In this document: positions 2,999 to 64,000 of the stretch, one piece after another
Position numbering within the stretch: position 1 is the first letter of the stretch
Layout of the letters: every line of letters begins with the position of its first letter
Sequence record: OQ873415.1
Length of the DNA stretch: 64,000 nt
Direction: 5' to 3' (one strand)
Origin: Escherichia phage PECP20
Notes under the pieces: generated by a model
Told to the model about the DNA's origin: nothing
Database searches by the model: none
What the model saw: the letters and a program-made list of their open reading frames with translations, nothing else
Position numbers and translations under genes: made by a program

Positions 2999-4312
2999 TC
3001 AAATAAAATGGACGTCAAAACGACCACGAGTTGTGCCGACATACAATAGCTGTTTAGCTAATTCTGAATCGGCATAATGGATACACGGTGTATAAACAAA
3101 GGCCGTGTCAACAGACATACCCTGAGCCTTATGGAAGGTTGATACAGGTAGCGCCTTCACCTTAGTGAACATGCGTTTAGCATCCCAGAATTTACTCCAT
3201 GGAGCTTTACCACCTTTATTCCAGAATTTGTATGTTTCTGCGGTCTTAGCCAAAAACAAATTGAATTTATAAAGCTCTTCTTCGGAAGAAATAACCTTTA
3301 TATCCTCGCGGACGTATTCTTCATCATCCCCATATGTTTCTACTGTAAGATTCCAGTATCGTATCATATATTCGCCTGAAACACCACGTGCTTTAACGAA
3401 TGTAGACGTTTCTACAGCATCTCGAATACGAACGAATTGCCCGTTATTGAAAAGCATTTCGGTCATATTTTTGCCATCTAGCTTATACGTCTTGGTAAAC
3501 GGCTCTTGTAGAACAATGACTTCGTCTTTAATAAATGGCTTTTCTGTTTCAAGAAGTTTTCGGCGAATAATTGAATTTAACTTGTCCACCGACTTATTTG
3601 TGAATGCCATCATTCGATTTTCGAAAAGGTCTTCAGGAGTTTTAACGACATTAAAATAGTTCATCATATACGATTTAAGGTCTGTATATCCATGAACACC
3701 GTGCCCATCAACTACTTTATCATAAATCCATTTGCCATTACGAATATCAGTCGCAACATCAATAATTGGTGCATTGCTACGTTTAACTTCTGTAAGGTTG
3801 CATTGCACGAAGTCTTTGTGAGTGAAGAAAGGACTTAGATACGCAGTGGATTCGCCTGGGTCTACCGGACGAATCTGGCATCGGTCACCAATTCCAATTA
3901 CTGTGCACCATTTAGGGATACTAGCTAACATTATTTTAAACAGAGAACGGTCACACATTGATGCTTCATCAAATAACAGTACACGACACAAGGCTAAGTC
4001 GGGAACCTTTTTCTGTTCAAATAATACGTTTTCTTCGTATGTAGTTGGGTTGATTTTAAGAATGCTATGAATAGTCGATGCTTCTTGACCCGCAAGTTTG
4101 CTTAGAACCTTTTTAGCAGCATGTGTAGGGGCTGCTAAAATAATACCTGATTCTCCGGCAGAAATAAGGGCTTCAACGATGAATCTAGTAAGGGTTGTTT
4201 TACCTGTACCAGCAGGCCCGTTAATAGTTACGTGATGTTTCTTTTCTTTAATAGCTTTCATAACAACGTTGAAGGCGTTTTTCTGGCCTTCGGTCAAATC
4301 ATCAAATGTCAT
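2999..4312 (-). CDS. dda: Dda DNA helicase (SF1B)
   Basis: 437 aa; near-colinear with T4 Dda as recalled (MTFDDLTEGQKNAFN..., Walker A GPAGTGKTT). Confidence 0.95.
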   Translation of the reverse strand: MTFDDLTEGQKNAFNVVMKAIKEKKHHVTINGPAGTGKTTLTRFIVEALISAGESGIILAAPTHAAKKVLSKLAGQEASTIHSILKINPTTYEENVLFEQKKVPDLALCRVLLFDEASMCDRSLFKIMLASIPKWCTVIGIGDRCQIRPVDPGESTAYLSPFFTHKDFVQCNLTEVKRSNAPIIDVATDIRNGKWIYDKVVDGHGVHGYTDLKSYMMNYFNVVKTPEDLFENRMMAFTNKSVDKLNSIIRRKLLETEKPFIKDEVIVLQEPFTKTYKLDGKNMTEMLFNNGQFVRIRDAVETSTFVKARGVSGEYMIRYWNLTVETYGDDEEYVREDIKVISSEEELYKFNLFLAKTAETYKFWNKGGKAPWSKFWDAKRMFTKVKALPVSTFHKAQGMSVDTAFVYTPCIHYADSELAKQLLYVGTTRGRFDVHFI

Positions 4313-4620
4313 CGTAAAGTCCCTGCAATTGGAATACTAACAATACGGCCAGTATCTAGAATTCGTTGATACAATCTTTGCGTCTCCGCATCTAGTTTAA
4401 TGTGTTTCATTTCAAGCTTATTAAACCAGAACTTACGCGGAGTTTCGACCATTCTTAGAACTCCCATTTTTAAATCTGTTTTATACTGTGTTTTCAAAGT
4501 ATCGAAAACTTTATCTGCAATATCCTTTCTAAAAAATACTGCAGGACGATGTTCATCAAGTGGAACTGGGACAGTAAATCCTTCCATATCTCGATAAACT
4601 ATTGCATATACATAAACCAT
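4309..4620 (-). CDS. hypothetical protein (dda.1 position, 103 aa)
   Basis: ORF overlapping dda start by 4 nt. Confidence 0.6.
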   Translation of the reverse strand: MVYVYAIVYRDMEGFTVPVPLDEHRPAVFFRKDIADKVFDTLKTQYKTDLKMGVLRMVETPRKFWFNKLEMKHIKLDAETQRLYQRILDTGRIVSIPIAGTLR

Positions 4621-56976: not shown

Positions 56977-57306
56977 TTATACTCTAGGCTTTTGAGCTTG
57001 TTTGGTATTGGATTCCCATGTGGCTTTGGTAATTTTGTTAGCGGCATAACCAAAGGCATTAGATAGAACACCTTTAGAGTTGAATACATCCAATCCAATA
57101 AGTACACCGGCTGTGTTAAATTTAGGAGCAAAGTACGCATTAGTTTTAGAAAGAGCTTTTTTCAATTCAGGGTCTTGAACCAAGTCATCAAAAACGCCTT
57201 TACTATTTACTTTATATGTTACTTTGGGATTTTTACTTTCTTCGATAGCAGCTTTCTGTTCCGCAGATAATGTAACTTCAGTGATAAACTCTTGATATGT
57301 TTTCAT
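56977..57306 (-). CDS. capsid internal protein with capsid targeting sequence
   Basis: ATG at 57306 gives N-terminus MKTYQEFITE, the T4 internal-protein targeting consensus; Lys/Ala-rich body. Confidence 0.7.
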   Translation of the reverse strand: MKTYQEFITEVTLSAEQKAAIEESKNPKVTYKVNSKGVFDDLVQDPELKKALSKTNAYFAPKFNTAGVLIGLDVFNSKGVLSNAFGYAANKITKATWESNTKQAQKPRV

Positions 57307-57313
57307 TTTTTCC

Positions 57314-57727
57314 TTAGTAAATTGATTTACCATAGTATTTGTACCAAGTCGGACGTTGAGCAATTTTTTCATCTAAGCGTGCTTGACTTATCGCAATGGA
57401 CACTTCGGACGGGACATAATTATTACGAAATTCGGCAGGAATGTCGGAAATATCCTGGACTGTCGTGTCCTTGATTTTGAAACCACGTTTCAAACATTCA
57501 GCGATTAGCTCGATTTGTCGTAAACGTAAAAATTCAAGTTTGTCGTAAAAGAATGTTACGTGACCTGTGCCTAAGATAAATGTTGGAGAGATTTTAAAAT
57601 CCTTTACACGTTTACCGTTTTGAACATGTTTACGGACTGCACCAAATACGCGTGGTAATTCACGATACTCAGCCATAAGATGTTGGTCGGACAGTTCAGA
57701 AACAAGTGTTAAATTGATACGAGTCAT
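57314..57727 (-). CDS. denV: endonuclease V (pyrimidine dimer DNA glycosylase)
   Basis: Near-identical to T4 DenV as recalled ([12 protein letters not shown]...); start at ATG 57727. Confidence 0.95.
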
Positions 57728-57785: not shown

Positions 57786-58067
57786 CTATTTTTCTGAAGC
57801 GCCTGAAATATATTTTTCAAGACGTTGTTTCATCAGCGAGCCGTTCTTAGCGATTTCTTCTGGTTTATCGCACATACGCAACAAGGCTTCAAGCTTAGCG
57901 ATATCGCTGGTACGTTCAAATTTGCGAGTATCTATCTTACTAGCAAGTTCAGAAATACGTGCTAATAGACTTTCAGCTTCAACCAAAGCTGCACCTAGCT
58001 TAGTTGCAAATGTGTCAGTAGCTTCGTTAAGAATAGATTCTGATAAAAATTCACTATATGTTTTCAT
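57786..58067 (-). CDS. capsid internal protein with capsid targeting sequence
   Basis: ATG at 58067 gives [10 protein letters not shown]; ATGA overlap with lysozyme stop. Confidence 0.7.
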
Positions 58068-58552
58068 ATATACGCTTTCCAAGTTCCTGTTTTAAATGTT
58101 GAGATTACGCGTTTCGCGCGATTAGGTGTCTGACGATACCATTTAGATTGAGCTAGATTTACTGCCGCTTCATCCCAACGTTTCTGTTTAAGCATACGAA
58201 GAGAATTAGTAAAACCGGCGACTCCTGCTACACCCATTTGGAAGACCATATTGACCAATGCACACCGACGAACTGCATCTAAAGAATCATATACCGGTTT
58301 AAGTTTAGCATTACCCAAGATTCCGCGAACGGCTTTATCGACGTCTTCATTAAATAGCTTTTCAGCCTCATCAAGGGTAATTGTACCGTTGCATTTACGA
58401 CCGATCATTCTGTCAAGTTCAGCTTTAGCTACGGCTAAAGACTGGTTCTTTGTTACCAAGTGGCCTATGCCAATCGTCCAAAAGCCTTCAGTGTCTTTGT
58501 ATAAAGTCAGTCTAAGACCTTCGTCATTACGAAGCATTTCAAATATATTCAT
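58064..58552 (-). CDS. e: lysozyme (endolysin, T4 e type)
   Basis: [32 protein letters not shown] matches T4 lysozyme as recalled; start at ATG 58552. Confidence 0.95.
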
Positions 58553-58556
58553 AATA

Positions 58557-58576
58557 CCTCCCACGTTTATAGGAGG
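58557..58576 (-). promoter_or_regulatory. SD-sequestering hairpin upstream of lysozyme gene
   Basis: Minus RNA CCUCC-UAUAAACGU-GGGAGG, where GGGAGG is the SD 5 nt before ATG; TAATAAATA just upstream. Confidence 0.5.
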
Positions 58577-58586
58577 TATTTATTAC

Positions 58587-59045
58587 TTATAGGATGGTAG
58601 TGAGCACCTTATATAATGATTTGCCCATTACATATTCCCATTGAGAAGGTTTAATTAAAGCGAATGCATCAAATTCAGGAATCTGTCGTCCGTCTGGGAA
58701 TGTATGATAGGAATTACAAACACTGTTTCTGAATTGCTCGTGCTCTACAGGGATGGTATATAGGAACAGATGAATATTCTTATTATCTGAGTAATGATGT
58801 TCACCTAGGTCTTTCAGGAAGACAGGGTCATATTGTGTAAACCCAGTTTCTTCTTCGCATTCACGAATAGCGGCTTCAATAGGAGATTCGCCAGGTTCGA
58901 CATGGTCTTTAGGAATATCCCACCGATGAGCTAAAGAACCTTTAGGACGAGAACCAGTTACACGACCCATGAATAACTCTTTATCTTTTGTCATGAAGAT
59001 AATACCGGCTGATAGTTCTTTCACTTTATTTTTCTTACTCATCAT
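58587..59045 (-). CDS. nudE: Nudix hydrolase
   Basis: 152 aa; Nudix box GESPIEAAIRECEEETGF; position downstream of e as T4 nudE. Confidence 0.8.
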   Translation of the reverse strand: MMSKKNKVKELSAGIIFMTKDKELFMGRVTGSRPKGSLAHRWDIPKDHVEPGESPIEAAIRECEEETGFTQYDPVFLKDLGEHHYSDNKNIHLFLYTIPVEHEQFRNSVCNSYHTFPDGRQIPEFDAFALIKPSQWEYVMGKSLYKVLTTIL

Positions 59046-59286
59046 ATCGGTCCCATGATTTGGCCATCAATTCGGACATAAATTCTTCAATGCGCGTTTC
59101 TTTAGATGGACTTTCACTATTAGAGACCGCAAGTTTGTAATCTGCAATAGGACAGAACATATCAAGGTCCATATTAAGATCGTCTTTGATTTTTTCTTCT
59201 GACACATCTTTATCATACGTGTACAGATAACTATCGCATGATTCTGATTTAATGTAAATTGCTATACTCATCTCAAATTCCTGCAT
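59035..59286 (-). CDS. hypothetical acidic protein (83 aa)
   Basis: ORF. Confidence 0.5.
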   Translation of the reverse strand: MQEFEMSIAIYIKSESCDSYLYTYDKDVSEEKIKDDLNMDLDMFCPIADYKLAVSNSESPSKETRIEEFMSELMAKSWDRYDE

Positions 59287-59759
59287 TCGGTAATAAAACG
59301 TTCAACTTCGTTATTCTTGGCCTTTATCTTGTCTTTACGTTCCTGTAAACTACTTTTAACAAGATTAATAATGATGGCGGCGGTACCGCCGCCAATGATG
59401 CCACCAACAACACTTACGATACTAGATGCTAATAAGATAGCAATAATATCAACAAAACCGAAAGAACTCACCTTAGTACTGAAAAACCATACCGACGGTA
59501 CAAATATAATCCATCCTGTTATCCATTGGCACTTATTGAAAAACTTTTCAAGCTCAGCTTGAGTTGTTCGTATTACTTCATCGATAGGTTGATATCCATT
59601 AATGTATCTGTTCACGATAATACCTGCTGGCTGGTCGATTTTAAATTCTTGGCAAATACGTTTCACTAAGTAGGATGGACATCCTGTCCAATCCACTGAA
59701 TAGTACGAAATACCTTCGTTGCCATCGTCTATATTAGACCAATATGTTTTGTTAATCAT
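59268..59759 (-). CDS. membrane protein with C-terminal ERFITECR motif (163 aa)
   Basis: Central TM helices; C-terminal motif shared with 60447..60752 and 63113..63472. Confidence 0.6.
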   Translation of the reverse strand: MINKTYWSNIDDGNEGISYYSVDWTGCPSYLVKRICQEFKIDQPAGIIVNRYINGYQPIDEVIRTTQAELEKFFNKCQWITGWIIFVPSVWFFSTKVSSFGFVDIIAILLASSIVSVVGGIIGGGTAAIIINLVKSSLQERKDKIKAKNNEVERFITECRNLR

Positions 59760-60445
59760 TACCAGCCTTCCATAGGGAATTCCAGATAAACTTGAGCATT
59801 GACACGAATTTCATTGGTAATCTTTTTAACTCGGTCTGTATTACGAGATACACGTCCGAACCAACGCCATCCATTACTAATTGCACGAGAACCAGTGTGC
59901 CATGTTTGCCAATCAAACTGAAGAAGAGTACGGTCCGGAGCTTCCCATTTCTCTAGTTCACCTTTTTCAATTTTTTCGAGGACTTCTTTGTGCCACTGGC
60001 GATAGATAAGTTCGCCATCAGGAATCTGACTGAACTCTGCAGTTCCTGTTGCAAAATGAGTAGGACACACATCAGCGTTAACAAGACCAAGAATATGTTC
60101 AGACAAATAGCGAGGATTGTCATAGTCAGGTTGTCCTGCAGTAATAAAATGTTGACCAACCGGAATATCCGGGCGTGGTACGTCATCATGGTGATAACCA
60201 GGAATAGCAGGATACCAACCAGGCATCAGCATATGGACTCGTGAATCAAATACTACATCTGAGTCTTTCCAATCGTCAGGGAGATTTTGGATAAAGCTAC
60301 GAGTAATTGGACCGCCGTTATCAAAAGCAAAATTCAAATCGCAATTAAAGAACATAGGCTCGTTTTTAATCTGGTCATTTTTAATCGCATGAGCAAAACC
60401 ACCTACTGCACGAGCTTGACTATTAAACACTTTAGAACTATTCAT
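59759..60445 (-). CDS. hypothetical protein (228 aa)
   Basis: ORF; His/Asp/Trp-rich; no family assigned. Confidence 0.65.
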   Translation of the reverse strand: MNSSKVFNSQARAVGGFAHAIKNDQIKNEPMFFNCDLNFAFDNGGPITRSFIQNLPDDWKDSDVVFDSRVHMLMPGWYPAIPGYHHDDVPRPDIPVGQHFITAGQPDYDNPRYLSEHILGLVNADVCPTHFATGTAEFSQIPDGELIYRQWHKEVLEKIEKGELEKWEAPDRTLLQFDWQTWHTGSRAISNGWRWFGRVSRNTDRVKKITNEIRVNAQVYLEFPMEGW

Positions 60446-60446
60446 A

Positions 60447-60752
60447 TTATTTTCCTCGACATTCTTTAATGAAATTTTCTAGATTGGTAGATTCAATAGC
60501 TTTTTTACGAGCTTCTGCGTGTTCTTCTTCAGACAATTTACATTTATAATTGACCCAGACGTTATGGTCGAAACTAGTCGTGGCATATAATAACAATGCT
60601 CCAACGAATAGCAAAAACGGCGATAAGAATACAAAACCAGGAACACCATCCATACTGTAAGCCTTTTGTAATACTGCAACAGAAAGAGCTGCGTAAAAAA
60701 GTGATACAAATATTGTTAAAAGACCAATTCGGTTGGTTTCGCCTAATTTCAT
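60447..60752 (-). CDS. membrane protein with C-terminal ENFIKECR motif (101 aa)
   Basis: Two TM helices; C-terminus LENFIKECRGK. Confidence 0.6.
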   Translation of the reverse strand: MKLGETNRIGLLTIFVSLFYAALSVAVLQKAYSMDGVPGFVFLSPFLLFVGALLLYATTSFDHNVWVNYKCKLSEEEHAEARKKAIESTNLENFIKECRGK

Positions 60753-60810
60753 AATATTCTCCTCATGTTTTAATAGGACTACTATAACATAGTCCTATCA
60801 GTTTGTACAC

Positions 60811-61029
60811 TTATTTTGACATTTCTTCGATGTCACGACGATACCCATCACGAACTTCACGAAGAGCTTCAAGGCCACACATAGGCTCGATACCAGTAAT
60901 GTGAACTTGATTAATCTGATACTCTACATCTTCTAACTGAGCGAAAACATAACGACGTTCTGCTGCACAACCAGGTTTAGCTTTACCGAAACGTTTATTC
61001 AAAGTAGTCATTTTTATATCTCCATTCAC
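60811..61029 (-). CDS. hypothetical protein (72 aa)
   Basis: ORF. Confidence 0.5.
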   Translation of the reverse strand: MNGDIKMTTLNKRFGKAKPGCAAERRYVFAQLEDVEYQINQVHITGIEPMCGLEALREVRDGYRRDIEEMSK

Positions 61030-61091
61030 TCATTTGTTTTGATAGGTCTATAGTATCAACAACTACAGACCTTGTAAACTGTTTTGTGAAA

Positions 61092-62048
61092 TTATTTGAA
61101 AGGTTTTACCATATGAAAGTTTTGTTTGAAACGCTTGACGTAATCGTCGTGTCCTAAGCTTTGGTACATACTTACTACTTTGTTATAATTTTCCCAAGCG
61201 AACTCACGGAACCATCCTGATGTGATTGATGTACAGACCTTTTCAAGGGCCATCATAAAACTATCACGTGGATGGATTTCAAAGTTATTAGGAATCTGAG
61301 AACGTTCTAACGCTAGTACACATGATTCTTCGTATACGCCGGCCAATTTGACCATTTCTGGTAATGATTCGAACTTCTCGCGTGAGGTCATGACTTCAGA
61401 ACCATCTTTCATATAAAATGTATACGCTGGACGGTCTGTTAGTGCAATGGCTTCATGAATAGTATCATGGTCATATGTATAGATGTCATCTTTAAAGAAC
61501 GCACTTTTAGAAGTGTCAAGAACTGGGTGAGCATAATTCAAGGTTTCTTTCTGGCGTTTCAGCATAATTTCAGTAAGTTCATCGTTCAGTGTAACACCTT
61601 TACCACGAAGATACTGAATATGGTTCATAGTCTTTAAAAAGAATGGATTATTTTTCTTGAAACGATGAGACATCTTAATTGCAAGACATATCTCAGGAGT
61701 TGCCCAGTAAAACCCGTTCAAACGGTCTTTAGTCAAATTTTTCTTGGCGTATTTTAAAAGGTCATAAGAAGACGTGAAATCTTCAGGAGTGAGTTCACCG
61801 ACTAGTTCGCGAACGTTAGTGATAGCCGGAACGATGTATGCTTCAAAATGAGTTTCGCGTCCATTATGGAAGCATTTGAAAACTTGGACATCAGGGTTAT
61901 CTTGGTGAACATATACACCCATCATTTGATTTTTGAATGCATTCCAAGAACCTTGGTCCGCAATAAAGTCCCAATCACTATTTTTAATAGCGCTAGAATC
62001 AATAAGACCGTGATAGTGAAGTGCACGAGAACCAATAACTAACATCAT
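61092..62048 (-). CDS. hypothetical protein, possible nucleotidyltransferase-like N-terminus (318 aa)
   Basis: N-terminal VIGSRALHYHG...SDWDF loosely resembles GS...D-x-D nucleotidyltransferase signature; weak. Confidence 0.65.
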   Translation of the reverse strand: MMLVIGSRALHYHGLIDSSAIKNSDWDFIADQGSWNAFKNQMMGVYVHQDNPDVQVFKCFHNGRETHFEAYIVPAITNVRELVGELTPEDFTSSYDLLKYAKKNLTKDRLNGFYWATPEICLAIKMSHRFKKNNPFFLKTMNHIQYLRGKGVTLNDELTEIMLKRQKETLNYAHPVLDTSKSAFFKDDIYTYDHDTIHEAIALTDRPAYTFYMKDGSEVMTSREKFESLPEMVKLAGVYEESCVLALERSQIPNNFEIHPRDSFMMALEKVCTSITSGWFREFAWENYNKVVSMYQSLGHDDYVKRFKQNFHMVKPFK

Positions 62049-62076
62049 AATATTTTCCTCGGATTAATTCATTAAC

Positions 62077-62328
62077 TTAAATTTCACGACATGCGATATT
62101 ATATTCATCCCAGAGGTCATCATGTGAAGCCTCTACCAATGGAACGATTGTACCGTTTATGTCTTCATTATAAGGGCAAATTGTACAGTGCGCATCTTCG
62201 AATCGGATGCCTTTGTGTTCAGATTTTTTATAACGCATATCGAATATCTTTGCAAACTTTTCACGAGTAATGGTTTTACCAACCACTTTGGTTCCGATAC
62301 TTTCGTAATAAATCATTGTGGACTCCAT
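62077..62328 (-). CDS. Cys/His-containing small protein (83 aa)
   Basis: ORF preceded by promoter cassette at 62334-62374. Confidence 0.55.
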   Translation of the reverse strand: MESTMIYYESIGTKVVGKTITREKFAKIFDMRYKKSEHKGIRFEDAHCTICPYNEDINGTIVPLVEASHDDLWDEYNIACREI

Positions 62329-62378
62329 TTGTTTTGATAGGACTACTATAACATAGCCCTATCTTGTTGTAAACTGTT

Positions 62379-62576
62379 TTAGCAAGAATAACTAGATGAT
62401 ACCCAGCCTTGAACAGTGATACTATTGTGGGATAATGAGATCGCGTCCTGGAGATTCAGACCTGCGTTATCTTCAATCCATAATGTAACTTCTTCGCGTT
62501 CTTCTGCTGCAATTTGGAACAGGTTTTCCAGAGCAGCTACTGCCGTACGTACAGCACAATCTAATTCACGAGACAT
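62379..62576 (-). CDS. small protein ending W-x-SSS-x-x-C (65 aa)
   Basis: C-terminus GWVSSSYSC; tandem paralog family. Confidence 0.5.
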   Translation of the reverse strand: MSRELDCAVRTAVAALENLFQIAAEEREEVTLWIEDNAGLNLQDAISLSHNSITVQGWVSSSYSC

Positions 62577-62585
62577 ATTGTTTCC

Positions 62586-62813
62586 TTAGCAAGACATAGA
62601 GGAAGAGAACCAGAAACCTTTGCCTTCCGGAATTCCATAATCGTTACGGATCCAGCCATATTCATCATATTCTGAACTGGTCGCCGGAATATATCGGTTA
62701 AGTCCTTCAGCATACACATGAAAATACTCGCCGGTTTTATCAGCTAATTGTTGGCCTTCACAGATTAGTGCTCGAATTTGGTCTTCAATTTCTTTAACGG
62801 TTTTAGTGGTCAT
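62586..62813 (-). CDS. small protein ending W-x-SSS-x-x-C (75 aa)
   Basis: C-terminus FWFSSSMSC. Confidence 0.5.
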   Translation of the reverse strand: MTTKTVKEIEDQIRALICEGQQLADKTGEYFHVYAEGLNRYIPATSSEYDEYGWIRNDYGIPEGKGFWFSSSMSC

Positions 62814-62822
62814 TTTATTTCC

Positions 62823-63116
62823 TTAACATATTTGAGAAGAGGAGATCCATACACCGGAAGTAACGATACCATTTTCGTCAACTTCACCGCCATAGTTTTC
62901 AATTTCATCGCGCATCCAGCGACTACATTCATAACCAACAGGATAGTAAGTACGACCTGAACCATATTCACCTACATCAAATGAAACACCATACTTATCT
63001 GCGATAATAGTAGCTTCATTCTCGATATGGTCTTGAGCACGAAGAAGTTTGCTGATTGCTTCTTCTGCAGATTTAGCGTCATTGTATTCAGGGATTACGA
63101 TTTCAATTTTACTCAT
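62823..63116 (-). CDS. small protein ending W-x-SSS-x-x-C (97 aa)
   Basis: C-terminus VWISSSQIC. Confidence 0.5.
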   Translation of the reverse strand: MSKIEIVIPEYNDAKSAEEAISKLLRAQDHIENEATIIADKYGVSFDVGEYGSGRTYYPVGYECSRWMRDEIENYGGEVDENGIVTSGVWISSSQIC

Positions 63117-63472
63117 TTTCTACATTCCTTAATAAAGTTTTCGATTGTTTCATTTTCACGTTTAGCTAGGAGTTCATTATAACTAATCATTTGAGAAGCG
63201 TAAACCTTTTTATTTTTCTTGTTGTGGTTTATAAAATCGTAGTAAAAATAGACTACAGTACAAAATGATGCGATGGATGCAAAGGCTTGGGTATACCGTA
63301 AGTCCTGCCATTGGTCTGTGAATCCACCAGTGTTCCCTATAAATCCTAACACAACGCCGTCAATAAGAAATCCAACTAATCCAAAGGCAAATCCCATGCC
63401 AATACTCATAATAAAAATTAGAATGTTCTCACCAAGAGAAGGCCATACGGTTAAGAGTTGAGGCTTTTGCAT
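63113..63472 (-). CDS. membrane protein with C-terminal ENFIKECR motif (119 aa)
   Basis: TM helices; C-terminus IENFIKECRK. Confidence 0.6.
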   Translation of the reverse strand: MQKPQLLTVWPSLGENILIFIMSIGMGFAFGLVGFLIDGVVLGFIGNTGGFTDQWQDLRYTQAFASIASFCTVVYFYYDFINHNKKNKKVYASQMISYNELLAKRENETIENFIKECRK

Positions 63473-63825
63473 CTTATTTCCTTAACGAATTCCATAGCTT
63501 CTTCATATTCATACTTTTTAACAGCTTCATCATACTGAGCTTGGGCTTTTGCGCACTGAACTTTCCATTCTCTTAATCGGGCTCTGTGATGACGGCCTTG
63601 GTGCCAATATCCTACCCAATTAATAGGCATTAATAAAAACGGTACAATAAGTGGTGCGACGAACATTAATGAAAATGCTGCATCAGACGATATAACTTCA
63701 CTAGAATCTAAAACAGCTCCTATAATCATAAAGATTAAAAATGCTAAAGCTAAAATAGGACCAAATAATACTTCATACGGGATTAATTTACGTTTGTATT
63801 CGTAGGCCCAGGGCTTACTTGGCAT
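63451..63825 (-). CDS. membrane protein (124 aa)
   Basis: ATG at 63825 (MPSKPWAY) chosen; overlaps the stop of the partial gene upstream; track start 63876. Confidence 0.5.
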   Translation of the reverse strand: MPSKPWAYEYKRKLIPYEVLFGPILALAFLIFMIIGAVLDSSEVISSDAAFSLMFVAPLIVPFLLMPINWVGYWHQGRHHRARLREWKVQCAKAQAQYDEAVKKYEYEEAMEFVKEIRCKSLNS

Positions 63826-64000
63826 GTATAGGGTTGGCTTTGACATATTCTCTACATTCCATAATAAATTGCTCAAGGATTAAATTGTTAGTGAAATTAG
63901 GACTAACAACCATAGTTTCATAAAGCGCATCAATAGCACTTAAAGCATCAACTCTTTTAAGCAAAGGCTTGCCTTCATACATAGTTTCAGAATCGATGAT
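63815..64000 (-). CDS. hypothetical protein, partial (C-terminal 61 codons; N-terminus beyond window end), FIMECR motif
   Basis: Open frame from window edge to TAA at 63817-63815; C-terminus ...EQFIMECREYVKANPIHAK resembles the ENFIKECR family. Confidence 0.4.
   Translation of the reverse strand: MIDSETMYEGKPLLKRVDALSAIDALYETMVVSPNFTNNLILEQFIMECREYVKANPIHAK

Follow-up and report, generated by a model that had tools for sequence, protein, structure and literature searches.

The e.2–e.5 gene cluster at the end of the window

The stretch of DNA analysed here (the window) comprises 64,000 nucleotides (nt) of Escherichia phage PECP20 (sequence record OQ873415.1), an RB69-like member of the T4-type phages (genus Mosigvirus), and the subject of this work is a short C-terminal motif, i.e., F-[IV]-x-E-C-R and its variants, which is carried by several small proteins encoded in the e.2–e.5 early-gene cluster at the end of the window. 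Bases 59000–64000 share 98.6% identity with Escherichia phage LH01, and all genes in this region lie on the minus strand, the order being e (lysozyme), nudE and then the 'e.x' early genes (Table 1). Relatives of these genes were gathered by tblastn on a phage collection followed by locus retrieval; homologue searches with e.3 alone and e.5 gave only three near-identical proteins and two close loci, respectively.

Five genes in the window carry the motif or a variant of it, namely the homologues of T4 e.2, e.3, e.4 and e.5 and a gene for a 101-amino-acid (aa) protein, p101, a member that is not present in T4. BLASTP against T4 gave E-values of 2e-11 for e.2 (N-domain), 7e-24 for e.3, 2e-55 for e.4 and 4e-67 for e.5, and the identities to the T4 proteins are 31–54% (35% over the full length for e.3, 54% for e.4). 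The PHROG matches of the carriers range from 4e-50 to 1.5e-95; the e.2 homologue, which is homologous to the N-domain of T4 e.2, matches the 'membrane protein' profile phrog_2203 with E = 4e-55. By homology and by gene order, which is kept between nudE and e.6, the four T4-like genes belong to the e.2, e.3, e.4 and e.5 orthologous groups. The e.5 homologue runs off the window end and is 200 aa long in LH01. It overlaps the e.4 homologue by 32 nt (63815-63846), with the e.4 start lying directly after the e.5 motif codons. The e.4 N-terminus read from the ATG at 63846, MSKPTLYMPSKP, is conserved with T4; the LH01 annotation uses a later ATG.

T4 e.2–e.5 (NP_049738-NP_049741) and PHROGs 2203, 2330, 2604, 2607 and 9798 are already known as genes, but their annotations do not go beyond 'hypothetical' or 'predicted membrane protein'. 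Sequence searches of the five carriers against Pfam, NCBIfam and the PDB returned nothing usable, the weak sub-threshold matches being to unrelated families only. 'Sulfurtransferase' labels on GenBank entries for e.3 and e.4 homologues (MK962756, OK272473, PV287714 and others) find no support in Pfam, NCBIfam or PHROG. Literature searches on T4 e.3, e.4 and e.5 found no paper, and neither the annotations nor the literature searches yielded an account of the shared tail or of its link with e.6.

Table 1. Cluster genes and nearby features in the window, followed by tail-bearing proteins of related phages; membrane topology is predicted, and tails run to the stop codon except where dots follow
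Feature	Position	Strand	Description	C-terminal tail	Motif codons
Internal-head-protein-like gene	56977-57372	minus
Internal-head-protein-like gene	57786-58082	minus
e	58064-58564	minus	lysozyme
nudE	58587-59045	minus
e.2 homologue	59268-59759	minus	163 aa; phrog_2203; N-terminal soluble domain, two transmembrane segments, cytoplasmic tail	...EVERFITECRNLR	59280-59303
p101	60447-60752	minus	101 aa; phrog_9798; two transmembrane segments, cytoplasmic tail	...NLENFIKECRGK	60456-60479
Intergenic repeat, copy 1	~60753-60816	minus
Intergenic repeat, copy 2	~61030-61091	minus
318-aa protein	61092-62048	minus	DUF7277 and DUF7275
Rejected sixth member	62077-62328	minus		...YNIACREI
Intergenic repeat, copy 3	~62329-62380	minus
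Small soluble protein	62379-62576	minus	65 aa; phrog_899/phrog_4882 group
Small soluble protein	62586-62813	minus	75 aa; phrog_899/phrog_4882 group
Small soluble protein	62823-63116	minus	97 aa; phrog_899/phrog_4882 group
e.3 homologue	63113-63472	minus	119 aa; phrog_2330; two transmembrane segments	...TIENFIKECRK	63119-63142
e.4 homologue	63451-63846	minus	131 aa from the ATG at 63846; phrog_2604; two transmembrane segments; variant tail	...AMEFVKEIRCKSLNS	63472-63489 (FVKEIR)
e.5 homologue, 3' end	63815-64000	minus	last 61 codons, stop at 63815; phrog_2607; runs off the window end	...LILEQFIMECREYVKANPIHAK	63851-63874
Kanagawavirus family			92–99 aa; no predicted transmembrane segment	...LDKFIKQCRRNQNVS
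Gaprivervirus and Dhakavirus family			109–116 aa; no predicted transmembrane segment	...LFLEYCRSSIQL
Klebsiella-phage protein			102 aa; no predicted transmembrane segment	...LFIAKCRAK
Yersinia-phage protein			93 aa; no predicted transmembrane segment	...LDFIDQCRR...

Occurrence of the tail motif

Four minus-strand proteins end in ERFITECRNLR (e.2 homologue), ENFIKECRGK (p101), ENFIKECRK (e.3 homologue) and EQFIMECREYVKANPIHAK (e.5 homologue), the distance from the motif to the stop being one to three residues in three of the copies and 11 residues in that of e.5. Six-frame translation of the window yields four copies of F-[IV]-x-E-C-R, compared with a mean of 0.055 and a maximum of one in 200 shuffles of the window, and the other ~105 kb of LH01 (genome size ~169 kb) contain no extra copy. 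The original prediction, which was made from the letters of the window, had named these four open reading frames (ORFs) and their tails; six-frame translation reproduced both coordinates and letters, and the motif, which it expected to stand out against shuffled sequence, does so. A genome-wide search likewise returned only the four ECR copies that it had listed, but a fifth carrier had been overlooked, i.e., the e.4 homologue, a protein with two transmembrane (TM) segments ending in EFVKEIRCKSLNS with the variant FVKEIRC.

A hidden Markov model (HMM) of the tail with 15 columns, for which 31 instances from nine genera were used, separates the carriers cleanly from other proteins. All matches above 10 bits are in genes of the cluster and lie at most 14 residues from the C-terminus, p101 giving the best match (19.3 bits) and the e.4 homologue scoring 15.3 bits; the best decoys among ~2,400 ORFs and a complete control genome reach at most 7.8 bits. 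The tail is very probably a real functional motif of these proteins.

Conservation of the tail on different scaffolds

The tail residues are among the few invariant columns of the carrier families. For e.5, an alignment of nine positional homologues from six genera (~20% identity) leaves only M1, N96, F184, C188 and R189 invariant, and in a second alignment of 24 database proteins C188 and R189 are again invariant, with F184 and I185 kept in at least 90%. In the e.2 family F..CR is invariant across six genera, in the e.3 family F, I and C are kept in the cross-genus alignment, and in the e.4 family F.K..R is invariant. The motif is present on at least five scaffolds of the e.6-e.5-e.4-e.3-...-e.2 module, i.e., four proteins with two TM segments and e.5. 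Related phages also carry the tail on unrelated proteins of 90-116 aa with no predicted TM segment (last rows of Table 1).

Profile–profile alignment with hhalign was used to compare the four membrane families with each other, the e.5 family being left out. With the tails included, five of the six pairs gave probabilities of 78–93%, and the pair e.4/p101 gave 31%. With the tails removed, the probabilities dropped to 0.2–36%, i.e., 36% for e.3/e.4 (P = 4e-4), 22% for the C-terminal part of e.2 (e.2C) with e.4 (P = 9e-4) and at most 3% for the other pairs. As judged by these profiles, the carriers are not demonstrably homologous outside the tail, and the tail, as the sole element that is robustly shared, behaves as a portable module.

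These comparisons also bear on an alternative in which the tail is a relic of a single ancestral small membrane protein that underwent tandem duplication and fusion, and is simply the best-preserved part, used for the proteins' own folding or for homo- or hetero-oligomerisation with no external partner. The membrane carriers are indeed encoded by adjacent genes, are of similar size and share an architecture of two TM segments and a charged helix; p101 makes an additional match to the C-terminal half of the e.2 profile phrog_2203 (E = 1e-4), the e.3 and e.4 families remain collinear over 88 columns even without the tail (with the hhalign values given above, as for e.2C/e.4), and the tail DNA of e.3 has 83% identity to that of e.5 across 30 nt, which points to local gene conversion. 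However, no accepted threshold for homology is reached once the tail is left out, biased composition can easily produce artefactual similarity between TM segments, and e.5 and the 90-116 aa proteins, whose folds are unrelated and which have no predicted TM segment, also bear the motif. In addition, the tail is better conserved across genera than every other part of each protein, so that a specific constraint beyond ancestry is needed. Common ancestry as the whole explanation is therefore unlikely in our view.

The T4 proteins carry the tail as well, i.e., KEFVIDCRKIK in e.3, KFVKESRCKSQS in e.4 and EKFVKECREYVKAITIPSK in e.5. T4 e.2, by comparison, has only 102 aa and is shortened relative to the e.2 proteins of other genera (163-195 aa; retrieved locus L002, plus strand, ~3973-4461, between nudE and e.3). 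Its reading frame runs on past two in-frame stops (TAG, then TAA) into ...MFIEMPWRLRRQQKIFDEKKYAQNLNNFITECRKLK, which shows that the tail-coding part is still intact; this part is apparently annotated as 'e.2b' in T4T. Either T4 e.2 has undergone a recent pseudogenisation, or the tail is expressed separately as a 36-aa tail-only peptide.

Consensus and level of selection

Over ~13 genera, the core of the tail reads Φ(-3)-x-x-F(0)-[I/V](+1)-x-x-C(+4)-R(+5), where Φ is hydrophobic, with 0–27 residues between it and the C-terminus. At +4, C occasionally gives way to V, I, S or A. The Glu position has E in only 15 of the 31 instances; elsewhere it holds Q, D, G, S, Y, N, K or M. The consensus first proposed for the window proteins, [EQ]-[NR]-F-I-[KTM]-ECR, keeps its core, which widens to F-[IV]-x-x-C-R, but its Glu is not conserved in relatives and a hydrophobic residue at -3 has to be added.

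The variable Glu is relevant to the idea that the tail mimics the capsid-targeting sequence (CTS) of T4 internal proteins (MKTYQEFIAE|A), in which case the scaffold core would bind it or the prohead protease gp21 would cleave it after I-x-E. The two share a local pattern, Φ-x-x-F-I-x-E-small-basic (positionally Φ-x-x-F-I-x-E-[A/C]-[R/K]), and a genomic neighbourhood, since MKTYQEFI[AT]EA[RK] is found in ip genes of the same region in T4 and its relatives, and C-terminal processing by gp21 is known for Alt. CTS residues 4 and 7 serve targeting and residues 8 and 10 processing (PMC9026906). However, the T4 CTS is N-terminal and is cleaved by gp21 after an obligatory Glu, whereas the tail is C-terminal and often has no Glu at this position; most carriers are integral membrane proteins, which cannot enter the prohead, and the internal-protein CTSs encoded here read FITEV and FLSES, with no match to the C-R part. 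Because the Glu is variable and the position C-terminal, the idea was rejected and is given very little credence. The two internal-head-protein-like genes in the window (Table 1) have CTS-like N-termini (MKTYQEFITE...), whose F-I-x-E core locally resembles the tail.

Codon usage distinguishes selection on the peptide from selection on the nucleic acid. In the 31 instances from nine genera, the conserved Arg is encoded by AGA (11), AGG (6), CGT (7), CGA (4) and CGC (1), the Cys by TGT (14) and TGC (11) and the Phe by TTT (23) and TTC (8), and the two FIKECR copies in the window differ by four synonymous and no non-synonymous changes. Such exchanges of AGR for CGN codons are difficult to account for except by selection for arginine. 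The motif is a protein signal, selected at the amino-acid level.

The nucleic-acid alternative would have the 3' ends initiate or couple translation of the following gene, or serve as short homology blocks for recombinational cassette shuffling, with the peptide as a by-product. In the window, the next ATG does follow every motif at 5-16 nt, with the Cys codon as the reference point, even in e.5 with its 11 further codons, the K-E and R codons are Shine-Dalgarno-like, and the intergenic regions of the cluster hold separate promoter and stem-loop cassettes of a promoter-early stem-loop (PeSL)-like kind. Across genera, however, the spacing to the following start codon is anywhere between +5 and +43 nt, or no start is nearby, the DNA identity between copies is low except for the e.3/e.5 pair, and Rfam finds nothing in 58500–64000. 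Downstream translation initiation was rejected because the spacing is variable and the codons are diverse, and nucleic-acid function as a whole appears most improbable.

Predicted topology and helical shape

Hydropathy analysis gives two hydrophobic segments for each of the four membrane proteins in the window. Their inter-TM loops contain 0–1 Lys and Arg residues, compared with 8–11 in the C-terminal tails, which by the positive-inside rule suggests an N-in/C-in topology with the tails in the cytoplasm. For e.5, no hydropathy window passes a cut-off of 1.6, the best value being 1.56 in LH01 e.5, and T4 e.5 has none even at 1.5. The original prediction had described its four ORFs as a family of small membrane proteins with TM helices and cytoplasmic tails. 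This description holds for e.2, e.3 and p101, for which two TM segments and, by the charge distribution, cytoplasmic tails are predicted, but not for e.5; the word family is too strong, since the carriers also include proteins with no predicted TM segment and the homology between the membrane carriers falls to 0.2-36% (hhalign) when the tail is taken away.

The spacing of Φ(-3), F(0), I/V(+1) and C/V/I(+4) corresponds to i, i+3, i+4 and i+7, which would place these residues on one apolar face of an α-helix, followed by the conserved basic residue. The replacement of C at +4 by V, I, A or S suggests that this position acts as part of the apolar face. An AlphaFold2 (AF2) model of e.5 is mixed α/β and has the motif in a helix (177–194), at a low confidence (mean predicted local distance difference test score, pLDDT, 59); a helical tail is predicted by such a model for e.5 only. 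A Foldseek search with this model against BFVD matched only uncharacterised e.5 relatives, and the low confidence together with these matches allows no functional inference from the fold. The tail may thus form a C-terminal amphipathic helix with Φ, F, I/V and C on its apolar face, as the residue spacing and the e.5 model suggest.

Another explanation for the strict conservation of Cys and Arg, which are the most invariant residues, is that the pair is a reactive or ligand site, e.g., for a metal or Fe–S bridge between tails, for a redox switch, or as the target of a phage modifying enzyme such as an Arg ADP-ribosyltransferase, and that the helix merely presents it. The same cluster contains a second family with a C-terminal Cys (W-x-S-S-S-x-x-C), and the Aeromonas and Pseudotevenvirus modules lie among thioredoxin and glutaredoxin genes. 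However, the whole e.4 family and the members in PM2 and Serratia phage X20 have V, I, S or A in place of Cys and keep F-[IV]-x-x-Φ-R, which means that the motif does not depend on a thiol. Furthermore, there is one Cys per chain in a reducing cytoplasm, and no enzyme family was recognised, the 'sulfurtransferase' labels being unsupported by Pfam or NCBIfam. We regard cysteine chemistry as the basis of the motif as rather improbable.

The PspA-like neighbour e.6

Directly upstream of e.5, just beyond the window end, lies e.6, a 197-aa coiled-coil protein (LH01, retrieved locus L001:2941-3534; T4 NP_049742), so that the carriers are encoded next to a gene of the PspA/IM30 family. The mean column identity of e.6 is 74% over seven genera, and T4 and LH01 share 88%, far above the values of its neighbours. 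The top nine PDB matches of its AF2 model in Foldseek are all Vipp1, PspA or ESCRT-III structures. Its likeness to PspA has been remarked once before, in passing, in a 2021 genome announcement that reported an HHpred probability of 99.9% to PspA (4WHE_A) for an e.6 homologue (PMC7862958). In many GenBank records e.6 bears the name 'host specificity protein', which none of the profile libraries searched supports.

We found e.6 in 1,109 phage records. The loci examined in detail numbered 20 and came from Mosig-, Tequatro-, Gapriver-, Dhaka-, Kanagawa-, Mosuguk-, Roskilde-, Winkler-, Teguna-, Pseudoteven-, Biquarta- and Tulanevirus and a Klebsiella phage; in 19 of them, the gene directly downstream of e.6 bears F-[IV]-x-x-C-[RK] near its C-terminus. 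Loci of Pseudotevenvirus and Aeromonas phages are among those with such a downstream gene. The protein encoded there is otherwise hypervariable, and it is usually followed by one to three proteins with two TM segments and the same tail. In Slopekvirus VAC13, whose genome is complete, an e.6 homologue and genes with the tail motif are both absent.

The C-terminus of e.6 itself (…ADVQEYINSLK) fits Φ-x-x-[FY]-[ILV]-x-x-Φ-[KR] in 25 of 31 homologues, and beyond e.6 and three tail carriers this pattern ends only two further ORFs of the 415 in the LH01 genome. The resemblance to the tail was noticed post hoc and is suggestive. The two further ORFs, whose match may be due to chance, are the lysis-inhibition accessory gene rIII (...AVRHFVITLK; L017:11747-11995) and lh_154 (L016:5262-5525).

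A putative docking helix

The original prediction held that the conserved tail points to a common partner or signal. This idea fits the selection at the amino-acid level, the seemingly unrelated scaffolds, the predicted amphipathic helix and the linkage to the PspA-like e.6. We propose that the tails may share the function of a cytoplasmic docking helix, to which we assign a probability of roughly one half, and which would bring several different proteins to one cytoplasmic partner. The best candidate for this partner would be e.6, the PspA/Vipp1-like coiled-coil protein at the head of the module, a choice that is suggested by co-occurrence and is put forward tentatively. The membrane carriers would then anchor or receive the phage PspA homologue, as PspB and PspC do for PspA and LiaI does for LiaH, and e.5 would be a soluble adaptor or regulator with the same handle. 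In its widest and still doubtful form, the proposal is that T4-like phages may encode their own Psp-like system of membrane maintenance or remodelling, in which e.6 would be recruited and regulated via a portable helix on exchangeable, fast-evolving inner-membrane adaptors (e.2, e.3, e.4 and p101) and on the soluble e.5, the e.6 C-terminus being a cognate or competing copy.

The comparison with the bacterial systems can be made at the level of gene arrangement. As in the Psp systems of E. coli and Yersinia and the Lia system of B. subtilis, a PspA-family gene, e.6, adjoins genes for small inner-membrane proteins whose C-terminal regions are predicted to be cytoplasmic and may be helical. In E. 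coli, PspC40-119 is the only PspC fragment that binds PspA, and it contains a putative leucine zipper that is required for the PspA interaction (PMC3068692); LiaI recruits LiaH to the membrane (PMC7619361). Unlike Psp and Lia, the module is phage-encoded, has no PspF-like regulator, and has one short motif that is common to several membrane proteins and a soluble protein.

Short C-terminal docking helices by which several clients reach the same hub are well known elsewhere, e.g., the MIM helices of ESCRT-III proteins, which bind the MIT domains of Vps4, and the clamp-binding tails of T4 gp43, gp33 and gp55. The tail resembles them as a short, putatively amphipathic C-terminal peptide on several different proteins, but its pattern, Φ-x-x-F-[IV]-x-x-C-R, is its own, and the module has no MIT domain or AAA ATPase. 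A resemblance to the C-terminal peptide of FtsZ (I-P-A-F-L-R-K) is too generic to support a claim.

Several observations weigh against docking to e.6 or against docking in general. By Pfam and NCBIfam, none of the carriers resembles the PspB, PspC or LiaI/LiaF families in sequence. The invariant Cys-Arg could indicate chemistry (metal, redox, modification) rather than docking. VR7 keeps the tails on e.2, e.3 and e.4 though e.6 and e.5 are missing from the locus, a loss which is probably a recent deletion relative to TH22. The exception among the 20 loci is Proteus phage Pm5461, in which an e.5-like protein with a Tyr variant of the motif (YIEQCRE..., ending …YIEQCREKLKNISKT) is encoded upstream of e.6. 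Finally, genes of a syntenic module may be linked through common ancestry and not through function.

Other features of the cluster

The gene at 62077-62328 was considered as a sixth member of the tail-bearing set and rejected, its homologues ending in NTYCYEI or NTYVAEI. Next to it, three tandem genes encode the small soluble proteins of the phrog_899 and phrog_4882 families (Table 1), which share a second C-terminal motif, W-[IVF]-S-S-S-x-x-C, ending at the stop codon. This family is not found in T4; it also occurs behind tail-motif membrane genes in Gapriver-, Kanagawa-, Winkler- and Tegunavirus (...HWVSSSETC, ...IWESSSC).

The 318-aa protein matches DUF7277 (E = 9e-28) and DUF7275 (E = 3e-79), and its N-terminus (G-S ... 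D-W-D) looks like a nucleotidyltransferase fold by eye. Many genera keep this protein in the cluster; Aeromonas phage 31 is an example of a phage that has it. Each of the three intergenic repeat copies consists of a sigma-70-like early promoter (TTTACA/TGTACA, 17 nt, TATAGT) and the inverted repeat TAGGACTATGTTATAGTAGTCCTA. These repeats resemble the PeSL cassettes of T4-type phages.

Biological significance

The genes e.2–e.6 belong to the many conserved 'ORFan' early genes that have no function assigned even in T4, the best-studied phage. A shared docking helix would offer a concrete and cheap experimental handle on them and would unite at least five unannotated gene families in one functional module, for which the motif can be used as an annotation marker in Straboviridae genomes. 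If e.6 is indeed the partner, the module would represent a virus-encoded system of the ESCRT-III superfamily with its own membrane receptors. Such a system would bear on how phages keep up the host inner membrane and the proton-motive force during infection and lysis inhibition, and on the membrane targeting of PspA-family proteins in general.

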